Shown in pieces: positions 1 through 1,333 of a DNA stretch of 1,816 nucleotides. Position 1 is the stretch's first letter; each line of letters opens with the position of its first letter. Under the pieces are notes generated by a model. It worked only from the letters and a program-made list of their open reading frames with translations. It searched no databases and had not been told where the DNA came from. This stretch comes from Escherichia coli (GTDB lineage Bacteria > Pseudomonadota > Gammaproteobacteria > Enterobacterales > Enterobacteriaceae): NCBI RefSeq assembly GCF_003334815.1, contig NZ_QOWO01000092.1. One strand, 5' to 3'. Position numbers and translations under genes: made by a program.

Positions 1-140
1 TATGGTCTGGCAGGGCTGGGGATGGGTAAGGTGAAATCTATCAATCCGTACCGGCTTACGCCGGGCTTCGGCGGTTTCACACCTGTGCTACATGTAACCA
101 CCGTATGCCGCCTTACATGCGCTGACGCGCATTATTTGCC

Positions 141-169
141 TTGTTCCGTCTGAAAGTAATCACTATGAT
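141..169 (+). promoter_or_regulatory. Putative sigma70 promoter of the TA operon: -35 TTGTTC (141-146), 17-bp spacer, -10 TATGAT (164-169)
   Basis: Hexamers read directly from the sequence. The -10 matches TATAAT at 5 of 6 positions, the -35 matches TTGACA at 4 of 6, and the spacing is 17 bp. It sits 27 bp upstream of the antitoxin start. Not experimentally supported; an alternative -35 (TTGCCT, 136-141) is also possible. Confidence 0.3.
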
Positions 170-182
170 TAAATATGATTAA
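164..182 (+). repeat. Tandem direct repeat TATGATTAA-a-TATGATTAA (candidate RHH antitoxin operator)
   Basis: Two exact 9-bp copies at 164-172 and 174-182, offset by 10 bp (one helical turn). The first copy coincides with the predicted -10. RHH antitoxins typically autoregulate by binding direct or inverted repeats that overlap their own promoter. The repeat is seen directly; the operator role is inferred. Confidence 0.5.
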
Positions 183-195
183 CAACTAATCGGAT

Positions 196-480
196 ATGCA
201 AATGAAAAACAATACCGCACAGGCAACAAAAGTAATTACCGCGCATGTGCCATTACCTATGGCTGATAAAGTCGACCAGATGGCCGCCAGGCTGGAACGC
301 TCCCGGGGCTGGGTTATCAAACAGGCGCTTTCTGCATGGCTTGCCCAGGAGGAGGAGCGTAATCGCCTGACGCTGGAAGCCCTGGACGATGTGACATCCG
401 GACAGGTTATCGACCATCAGGCTGTACAGGCCTGGGCGGACAGCCTCAGTACTGACAATCCGTTACCGGTGCCACGCTGA
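196..480 (+). CDS. parD: Type II antitoxin, ribbon-helix-helix (CopG/ParD-like) family
   Basis: 94-aa ORF starting ATG 196 (alternative in-frame ATG at 202). The N-terminus has an RHH-like layout: a short beta-strand (KVITAHVPLPM), then helices with a G-x turn (ADKVDQMAARLERSRGWVIKQALSAWL), resembling the IKQ(Y)AL motif region of RK2 ParD as recalled. The TGA stop (478-480) overlaps the ATG of the downstream ParE-like toxin at 480-482, the classic antitoxin-first coupled TA arrangement. Size and acidic C-terminal tail fit a toxin-binding domain. The symbol is a family-level assignment, not an ortholog call. The Shine-Dalgarno is weak, so the start codon is uncertain. Confidence 0.75.
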   Translation: MQMKNNTAQATKVITAHVPLPMADKVDQMAARLERSRGWVIKQALSAWLAQEEERNRLTLEALDDVTSGQVIDHQAVQAWADSLSTDNPLPVPR

Positions 481-755
481 TGGAACTGAAGTGGACCAGT
501 AAGGCGCTTTCTGATTTGGCGCGGTTATATGATTTTCTGGTGCTGGCCAGTAAACCTGCTGCCGCCAGAACGGTACAGTCCCTGACACAGGCACCGGTCA
601 TTCTGTTAACTCATCCACGTATGGGAGAACAGTTGTTTCAGTTTGAACCCAGGGAGGTCAGACGGATTTTTGCTGGCGAGTACGAAATCCGTTACGAACT
701 TAATGACCAGACTATTTATGTATTGCGCCTGTGGCACACACGAGAAAACAGGTAG
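480..755 (+). CDS. parE: Type II toxin, RelE/ParE superfamily (ParE-like)
   Basis: 91-aa ORF. The C-terminal segment (QTIYVLRLWHTRENR) fits the ParE-type hydrophobic-x-hydrophobic-R-hydrophobic-x-H-x-R pattern, and the size (~90 aa) is typical. The start ATG shares one nucleotide with the antitoxin stop (TGATG at 478-482), implying translational coupling. GC content matches the upstream antitoxin. The symbol is a family-level assignment. Confidence 0.8.
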   Translation: MELKWTSKALSDLARLYDFLVLASKPAAARTVQSLTQAPVILLTHPRMGEQLFQFEPREVRRIFAGEYEIRYELNDQTIYVLRLWHTRENR

Positions 756-783
756 ATTGTGTGTGGGGACAACTTAACATAGC

Positions 784-845
784 CTGCAGATATTAATTCT
801 GGAACATTATTATCACGCCAGATATTTTGCATTCCATTAAATAAT
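784..845 (+). promoter_or_regulatory. Tentative promoter region for the 861..1139 ORF (weak hexamers: TATTAT 808-813, AATAAT 840-845; 8-bp direct repeat CAGATATT at 786-793 and 819-826)
   Basis: The 105-bp gap after the parE stop implies an independent promoter. There are AT-rich -10-like hexamers but no convincing -35, and a CAGATATT direct repeat whose copies are 33 bp apart. Speculative. Confidence 0.15.
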
Positions 846-850
846 CTTGT

Positions 851-855
851 AGGAG
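851..855 (+). promoter_or_regulatory. Shine-Dalgarno sequence (AGGAG) for the 861..1139 ORF
   Basis: AGGAG lies 5 nt upstream of the ATG at 861 and is a perfect core match to the anti-SD complement. Confidence 0.55.
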
Positions 856-860
856 ATAAA

Positions 861-1139
861 ATGAATTACGATGAAATAACGAAAATTACCGCTGAACGTA
901 TTAGCGACTACATGACTGAAGCAGTTAATACAGACTCTATTGCCGTTGCGGAAATGTTTCATAACGCTGCATGGGGAGTGCGAACATTGTGGTTTGAACT
1001 CGTCACAAAAATAGATATGGATATGCATAAAAAGAACGGGTATGCGAGTTATGATCTTAGAAGGAAAATCGAAATGCAGCATGAAGAGTTTCAGAAAATG
1101 ACAGAGCGCGAGCAAGTGCCTTTATTGAAATCGCCATAA
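861..1139 (+). CDS. Hypothetical small protein (92 aa), no family recognised
   Basis: ATG at 861 is preceded by a canonical Shine-Dalgarno AGGAG (851-855) with a 5-nt spacer. The ORF ends in three tandem in-frame stops, TAA TAA TAG (1137-1145). The translation has balanced, mildly acidic composition and looks protein-like, unlike the antisense shadow ORF. It is AT-richer (~44% GC in block 901-1000) than the TA operon. I recognise no homology from memory. Confidence 0.55.
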
Positions 1140-1147
1140 TAATAGAA

Positions 1148-1178
1148 ACAGTACAAGTACATTGCTGTATTGTGTTTT
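1148..1178 (+). terminator. Weak candidate intrinsic terminator downstream of the 861..1139 ORF
   Basis: ACAGTAC (1148-1154) can pair with GTATTGT (1167-1173) as a 7-bp stem with one G-U pair, followed by G then TTTT (1175-1178). The stem is AT-rich and the loop is long (12 nt), so predicted stability is low. Confidence 0.15.
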
Positions 1179-1241
1179 CCTTGAATATTGAATCGCGGTG
1201 CCCATGTACTACGATTCCTTTCGTGTCATTTATCATTGCAC

Positions 1242-1280
1242 ACTTTCCCTGACTGAGCGTAAAACACTGACTACTTTCCC
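1242..1280. repeat. Short rearranged direct repeats: ACTTTCCC (1242-1249 and 1273-1280) and CTGACT (1249-1254 and 1267-1272)
   Basis: Exact 8-bp and 6-bp repeats read directly from the sequence, in the 194-bp convergent intergenic region between the 861..1139 (+) and 1603..1334 (-) ORFs. Function unknown. Confidence 0.3.
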
Positions 1281-1333
1281 CTCAAACTCTTGGACGGAGA
1301 ATGCAAAATTGGTCTGTTCCAGCATAGAATATG

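Follow-up and report, generated by a model that had tools for sequence, protein, structure and literature searches.

Is the small open reading frame that lies directly 3' of a plasmid toxin-antitoxin (TA) pair a gene at all and, if it is, does its product serve that pair or only travel with it? Both questions are raised by the window analysed here, a 1,816-nucleotide stretch of Escherichia coli DNA. The ORF occupies positions 861..1139 on the plus strand and encodes a 92-aa protein that we assign to the YPNR family (from the ORF list, the homologs, dN/dS and an AlphaFold2 model). A Shine-Dalgarno sequence, AGGAG, is present at 851..855 on the same strand, five bases 5' of the ATG at 861, and the frame runs into three tandem stop codons at 1137-1145. 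ParE ends at 755, 105 bp away from the ORF, and every coordinate stated in an earlier sequence-only reading proved correct. Its description of the product as mildly acidic and soluble-looking also holds: the protein has a mass of 10.9 kDa, a pI of 5.3, a net charge of about -4 and a GRAVY of -0.63, and it contains no hydrophobic segment.

Reading frame, selection and family

By itself, the length of the ORF is weak evidence for a gene. An ATG-initiated frame of at least 92 codons appeared in 142 of 2000 composition-matched random sequences of 1061 nt (~7%), and an equally long frame (92 aa, 837..1115) is open on the minus strand; both points favour a chance ORF, or a true feature that is antisense or an RNA element. 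The sense frame, however, is preserved down to 33-40% identity, with substitutions biased to synonymous ones, while the antisense frame is broken or missing in divergent homologs. The antisense frame shares the codon register of the sense ORF and is open because the latter contains just one TTA, CTA or TCA codon, so that we regard it as a shadow and not as a gene. An RNA element finds no support either, since the window matched nothing in Rfam and showed no significant RNA structure. A purine-rich motif (AGGAG, AGGGG, GAGG or GGAGG) precedes the ATG at the same site in every homolog examined, and both this putative Shine-Dalgarno sequence and the reading frame are maintained across 17 diverse loci. 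The dN/dS ratio, calculated by the Nei-Gojobori method for pairs with dS of 0.2-1.7, was about 0.09-0.25. Because frame and Shine-Dalgarno sequence are conserved and dN/dS is low, the ORF goes beyond what chance would leave. The comparisons indicate a real gene under purifying selection, the strong translation signals of which the sequence-only reading had pointed out, and the pattern of conservation contradicts the chance, antisense and RNA readings, to which we assign a negligible probability.

The same reading had called the ORF an orphan, which proved wrong. A search of 5.8 billion clustered proteins returned 210 homolog clusters at 90% identity, mostly of 93 aa, and a profile search of 1.84 billion representatives returned 74 clusters at 50% identity, the full-length members of which are all standalone proteins of about 90 aa. 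By tblastn the protein was found on 2576 plasmids of PLSDB, 2103 of them with at least 80% of the protein covered. The hosts include Escherichia, Klebsiella, Shigella, Salmonella, Citrobacter and others, Acidithiobacillus not being among the genera named for these matches, and the plasmids are of IncI1, IncF, IncX4 and other Enterobacterales types. Of 5426 complete E. coli genomes, 1746 contain the region, with plasmids accounting for 2046 of the 2065 places, and the ORF usually stands last behind a TA pair.

A UniProt entry exists as well. The 93-aa allele of the type found in L003 is the exact sequence named YPNR_ECOLX, 'Uncharacterized 11.1 kDa protein', and the window protein is 90.2% identical to it over all 92 residues. 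The two belong to the same family and differ in their settings: in IncFII plasmids the gene adjoins parR/parM (stbB/stbA), whereas the window allele has 92 aa, having lost Glu93, follows an intact ParDE-I pair and stands beside an IncI1 replicon. In UniRef, other family entries take their name from the 'Stability (Stb) locus of IncFII plasmid NR1', which records the place of first sequencing and not a demonstrated role in stability. Databases thus already listed the ORF product, although as uncharacterised; what we add is the breadth and intactness of the family, explanations for the stop codons and for the pseudogene annotation, and the habit of standing next to TA pairs.

The statement of the sequence-only reading that the protein matches no known family was upheld with profiles of Pfam, NCBIfam, PHROG and PADLOC. 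None of the type II toxin or antitoxin profiles of Pfam, NCBIfam or PADLOC matched it, permissive thresholds included, and a PDB sequence profile search returned only a chance match (E = 0.28). Within the family, members typically have 93 aa and end in RERVPLLKSPE. An alignment of 18 sequences, with identity down to 60%, contains 20 invariant positions, among them N35-A36-A37-W38, W44, R83, L88 and L89. The window protein carries the family motifs, namely NAAWG in helix 2, W44 and the C-terminal R-x-V-P-L-L.

The triple stop TAA-TAA-TAG (1137..1145, plus strand), previously taken for a meaningful signal, is incidental. The closest relatives, L009 and L010, read GAA TAA TAG, so in the window a G-to-T nonsense mutation has turned the codon of the terminal Glu93 into the first TAA. 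The IncFII allele of L003 reads GAA TAA CAG, and most of the distant homologs have a single stop followed by a sense codon. On this comparison the second TAA is the native stop, and the TAG in third position is an incidental, lineage-specific feature common to the closest relatives.

RefSeq presents the gene differently. PGAP calls the equivalent of window positions 861-1064, that is codons 1-68, a partial pseudogene ('incomplete; missing C-terminus'), and makes the same call at L001 2404-2607 and, in pEC958, at L022 22677-22880. If the annotation were taken at its word, the ORF would be a decaying remnant, and several observations agree with that: the window allele lacks the last codon, three nonsynonymous changes and one synonymous change set it apart from its nearest relatives in addition to the loss of Glu93, and truncated alleles are common. 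On pO157 the allele ends after 68 codons, and tens to hundreds of proteins fall in clusters of 73-83 aa; truncated and frameshifted alleles are so frequent that the gene must be dispensable in many lineages. The changes in the window allele are too few to interpret, though their 3:1 ratio fits some relaxation of constraint. On the other hand, the window protein aligns end to end with the family of ~93 aa, apart from the non-conserved terminal Glu, the dN/dS values are well below 1, and the exact 92-aa allele occurs on at least 1000 contigs. We trace the PGAP call to the shortened 68-aa copy of pO157 (WP_001105064.1) because the 68-codon span ends exactly where that protein loses homology; the call is probably an artefact of this short reference protein. 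The decaying-remnant reading is contradicted by these comparisons and is, in our estimation, very improbable.

The correction matters because of where the gene lies. It sits on the backbone of the plasmids (IncF, IncI1, IncX4) that, in E. coli, Klebsiella, Shigella and Salmonella, spread antibiotic resistance and virulence, and the region is found in about one third of complete E. coli genomes, yet it has neither a family model nor a name and is often labelled a pseudogene by RefSeq. Its intactness, the purifying selection and a confident predicted fold correct that annotation and make it a cheap and well-defined experimental target. We consider it a moderately interesting lead rather than a surprise.

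Three unusual members of the family were noted. A Citrobacter contig (L012) carries two divergent paralogs within 1.6 kb of each other, at 1212-1481 and 2791-3042; they belong to a row of small genes on one strand that begins with a HigB/HigA-like pair. In an Enterobacteriaceae MAG (L011, 4740-5282), an upstream gene of 86 aa (phrog_12911) is fused in frame with the family member; there is no stop between the two genes, and the resulting ORF has 180 aa. Finally, a MAG contig binned as Collinsella (L013) holds an enterobacterial ParDE-I block together with a copy of the ORF (983-1144) that an internal deletion has shortened to 53 aa; this contig is probably a binning contaminant and not a true actinobacterial occurrence.

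The plasmid site and its cassettes

The window is identical in sequence to ~90-kb IncI1-type plasmids of E. coli, Salmonella and E. albertii, in agreement with the earlier placement of the ORF on mobile DNA adjoining parDE. The gene for the replication initiator and the origin lie just 5' of it. The block opens with parD-I (196..480, plus strand), annotated in RefSeq as a CopG/ribbon-helix-helix antitoxin; this gene is followed by parE-I (480..755, plus strand), annotated as a RelE/ParE-family toxin, which adjoins the ORF upstream. Together they make up ParDE-I, a system that Kamruzzaman and Iredell have characterised (PMC6614396). Past the ORF the plasmid continues with minus-strand genes, namely two small genes, a ProQ/FinO-family gene and yagA, with a colicin Ia-type gene further on.

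Comparison with other IncI1 plasmids delimits the block. By blastn, ColIb-P9 matches window positions 1-129 and 1332-1816, and the cassette in between (130..1331), which comprises parD, parE, the ORF and a tail of 190 bp, is absent from the same site. Its place in ColIb-P9 is taken by YacA and YacB, an unrelated pair, together with a 3'-5' exonuclease and a hypothetical gene of 150 aa (L023 2327-4894). The two cassettes are alike in that both fill one slot, flanked by the replication origin on one side and the minus-strand genes on the other, and in that a TA pair comes first and same-strand passenger genes follow. They differ in content, the proteins being unrelated, and by tblastn neither ParD-I/ParE-I nor the ORF showed similarity to the ColIb-P9 cassette. 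In R64 the stretch in common with the window is limited to 1-129 by blastn, with other cargo beyond, and in the IncI1 plasmid pESBL the whole parD-parE-ORF block must be absent because only ~1 kb separates repZ from the next gene, so that Tn-seq and RNA-seq work on pESBL has no bearing on the ORF. These alignments indicate that the IncI1 site after the origin hosts alternative cassettes.

The block is not confined to IncI1. The IncF plasmid pEC958 matches window positions 24-1131 with 98% identity (blastn), and parE and the ORF occur as one piece in 2016 of 2928 PLSDB records. The shared block and the joint records show that the three genes move together. Recombination breakpoints gather at the 3' end of the ORF, at about 1064, at 1128-1145 and at 1156.

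We also considered whether the ORF is the 'yacC' of ColIb-P9 and R64. This was rejected, since the ColIb-P9 cassette differs from that of the window and the gene after yacB encodes the exonuclease; the 'yacC' of the ColIb-P9 literature is probably this exonuclease. It should be noted that the names yacA and yacB cover two different TA pairs in the literature.

Two minus-strand frames to the right of the ORF appear to be remnants. At 1723-1725 the window lacks ~224 bp that are found in ColIb-P9 and most IncI1 plasmids, and the missing segment falls inside a minus-strand gene of 164 aa (WP_001582574/WP_001459505), of which the 56-aa ORF at 1600-1770 is the remnant left by the deletion. A single E. 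coli record matches the whole window in one piece, and PGAP labels its copy of the 56-aa ORF 'frameshifted'. The second frame, of 49 aa (1233-1382), spans the cassette junction at 1331/1332 and resembles a remnant of a longer gene; over 42 residues it shares 57% identity with the C-terminus of 178-aa proteins with a RelB domain (PF04221). Such 178-aa proteins sit near family members in L014 and L015, and one of 184 aa in L017 falls in the same blastp cluster.

Predicted structure and a probable binding surface

The AlphaFold2 monomer is a three-helix bundle (mean pLDDT 95.1, pTM 0.84), with predicted helices at residues 3-23, 27-58 and 60-80. When two copies were modelled as a tandem fusion the pTM was also 0.84 and the linker alone was disordered. 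The protein is probably a homodimer according to this model, a conclusion drawn from the pTM of the fusion alone, in which helical bundles pack readily. No function was indicated by sequence or fold searches. The mode of action most likely on the model is protein binding, through the invariant helix-2 patch (H-N-A-A-W-G and W44) together with the C-terminal R-x-V-P-L-L tail.

A conserved surface motif and tail on a small, acidic, all-helical protein that is restricted to plasmids and bears no enzymatic or DNA-binding signature could also belong to an establishment or anti-defence factor, one that inhibits a defence or stress-response protein of the host when the plasmid enters or resides in the cell. 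Small-gene arrays are in keeping with this idea: in Dickeya (L016) the family member belongs to a same-strand array of small genes 3' of an SLT gene, and L008 and L012 hold similar arrays of small uncharacterised genes. In addition, expression from an autoregulated TA promoter would be expected to surge on entry into a naive cell. The location in IncI1 plasmids argues against it, however. The gene follows repA and the origin and lies outside the leading region next to oriT; on the related pESBL map repZ is at 36.5 kb, ardA-psiB-ssb at about 54-65 kb and oriT at 70.4 kb, which puts the locus ~34 kb from oriT. Moreover, searches of family, fold and literature produced neither a known inhibitor nor an experimental hint: the fold search matched no known inhibitor, PADLOC, whose profiles cover defence and not anti-defence, gave no match for the ORF, and the papers searched on the I-complex and on Shigella pINV/pWR100 do not mention it. 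The sequence-only reading had named regulators, anti-defence and defence-accessory factors as candidate roles; we consider a role as establishment or anti-defence factor quite unlikely.

Transcription and the neighbouring toxin-antitoxin pairs

The sequence-only reading had concluded from the 105-bp gap that the ORF probably has its own promoter. This is not borne out by the gap itself, which contains no promoter site at the scan threshold, no terminator and no significant RNA structure. The only candidate close by is a weak promoter-like sequence at 731..758 on the plus strand (GTGGCA-16-TAGATT, 8 of 12), read from the sequence and overlapping the parE stop codon, which could serve the ORF as an internal promoter. 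Upstream of parD, a consensus scan identified a promoter-like site at 150..179 (CTGAAA-18-TATGAT, 9 of 12, plus strand), the probable source of a transcript that would cover parD, parE and the ORF. In the IncFII lineage, which has neither parD nor the parD promoter, the sequence at the same site as 731-758 is stronger (L003 3870-3897, GTGACA, 9 of 12): the substitution G734A turns GTGGCA into GTGACA and, at the same time, the parE Trp codon TGG (732-734) into TGA. Downstream of the ORF, a weak A+T-rich hairpin followed by GUUUUCC (1148..1180, plus strand) has a fold energy of -8.4 kcal/mol with a non-significant z of -1.28; the terminator scan did not flag it, and it is at most a weak terminator. 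On other plasmids the family gene starts 15-82 bp after the upstream gene or overlaps it. The most economical reading is read-through from the upstream operon, perhaps with help from a weak internal promoter.

The explanation that we favour, and to which we give an even chance of being right as a whole, builds on this arrangement. The ORF would be an autonomous passenger gene, poor in promoter activity of its own, that closes plasmid maintenance operons at their 3' end and owes its expression chiefly to read-through; in the window the parD-I/parE-I transcript would read into it, maybe aided by the weak promoter at 731-758, and its own strong Shine-Dalgarno sequence would allow it to be translated independently. 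The product would be a soluble, acidic and probably dimeric three-helix bundle that binds another protein through the helix-2 patch and the C-terminal tail. It may confer some benefit on the plasmid, and its function would be independent of the neighbouring TA pair, a part that shares the even chance of the whole.

The distribution of upstream genes bears directly on that last point. TA pairs are found directly upstream, on the same strand, in 5 of 11 distinct contexts: ParD-I/ParE-I in the window; HigB (PF09907) with an HTH partner in L014, L012 and L015; a Phd/YefM-like antitoxin with a RelE/StbE toxin in L017 and L016; a HigB-like toxin (PF05015) with HigA on a Yersinia plasmid (L027), where the family copy is ~33% identical; and MazE with PemK in soil metagenomes (L028, L029). 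A TA pair immediately upstream is expected for a few percent of plasmid genes and, with that expectation being a rough estimate, the enrichment looks real. A ParA operon precedes the family member in L030 and L031 and a SprT-like gene on IncX4 backbones (L004, L019), in both cases without a TA pair, and the upstream genes in L011 and L025 belong to no Pfam or NCBIfam family. Over all contexts the upstream gene is on the same strand at a distance of 15-105 bp, or overlaps. Neighbour clustering across 17 loci revealed no conserved partner gene. The passenger explanation accounts for the placement in 5 of 11 contexts solely through the properties of the promoters.

Fate of the ORF after loss of a working pair points the other way from its repeated placement. 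In ~980 PLSDB plasmids a dead parE remnant, with a 5' truncation, two in-frame stops and a +1 insertion, lies beside an ORF that has no disabling change. The ω values were 0.49 for the remnant and 0.23 for the ORF, a difference that is not significant with so few substitutions. The two lines of evidence on the TA link, repeated 3' placement and persistence without a working pair, are in conflict.

If placement is given the greater weight, the ORF could be a helper of the pair that it follows, either a third component like PasC or a functional counterpart of a TAC chaperone. Co-expressed after antitoxin and toxin, it would modulate how the toxin is neutralised, how the antitoxin is turned over or what follows once the toxin is active. 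Besides the five contexts, the transfer of parD-parE-ORF as a block between IncI1 and IncF plasmids, with its right edge at the end of the ORF, is consistent with such a role, and one dispensable third gene is already known. PasC, which enhances the neutralisation of PasB by PasA, is like the ORF product a small plasmid protein encoded by the third gene after antitoxin and toxin (pasABC of pTF-FC2) and is likewise dispensable for basic TA function (review PMC4803016). In strand and position the ORF agrees with a PasC-type third gene, lying directly 3' of the TA genes with a 105-bp gap and no terminator between, and it may share their transcript. Unlike PasC, however, the ORF family follows at least four unrelated TA families, as well as ParA and SprT-like genes, and persists beside a dead pair. 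The partner pairs differ in antitoxin fold and in toxin target while the motifs of the ORF remain constant, which makes a specific contact unlikely, and the ORF is intact and constrained beside dead parE and present in IncX4 and ParA contexts that have no upstream pair.

The likeness to TAC chaperones is also partial. In TAC systems a SecB-like chaperone is encoded by a third gene 3' of TA pairs from several families, and the ORF shares this position. Its product, in contrast, is predicted to be a three-helix bundle and not a SecB-like fold. Furthermore, cloned ParDE-I is by itself sufficient to stabilise plasmids, and ParD-I needs no helper to neutralise ParE-I (PMC6614396), so the pair works without the ORF and, unlike in TAC, there is no chaperone addiction. 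Taken together, we regard a helper role for the adjoining pair as unlikely.

A broader version would make the protein a general TA accessory, recruited repeatedly 3' of unrelated type II operons (ParDE, two kinds of HigBA, Phd-RelE and MazEF). It would act in trans on a shared step, such as the turnover of antitoxins by proteases or the recovery that follows toxin activation, and action in trans would explain why it can outlast its own pair on plasmids where other pairs are present. We hold this to be rather improbable; if true, it would mean a new and very widespread layer of TA control on the main resistance plasmids of Enterobacterales. More generally, should the placement next to TA pairs be functional, the gene would be a new component of plasmid maintenance or stress biology. 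Should it not be functional, as in the passenger explanation, the gene would be an example of small plasmid genes that borrow the promoters of maintenance operons.

Further observations concern the surroundings of family members. In the TraDIS study of pEC958 (PMC4398462) the hypothetical gene EC958_A0140 was reported as required for plasmid maintenance, and by a rough count it lies within a few genes of the parDE-ORF locus (L022, around 117000-118200). That EC958_A0140 is the window ORF is disfavoured by the distribution reported for A0140. The same paper left the ParDE-I pair unrecognised as a TA system. Finally, on two Salmonella plasmid contigs a cysteinyl-tRNA synthetase-like gene lies directly 3' of the family member (L014 5469-6860 and L015 5469-6860), and L014 carries a glutaminyl-tRNA synthetase-like gene as well (7626-9293).
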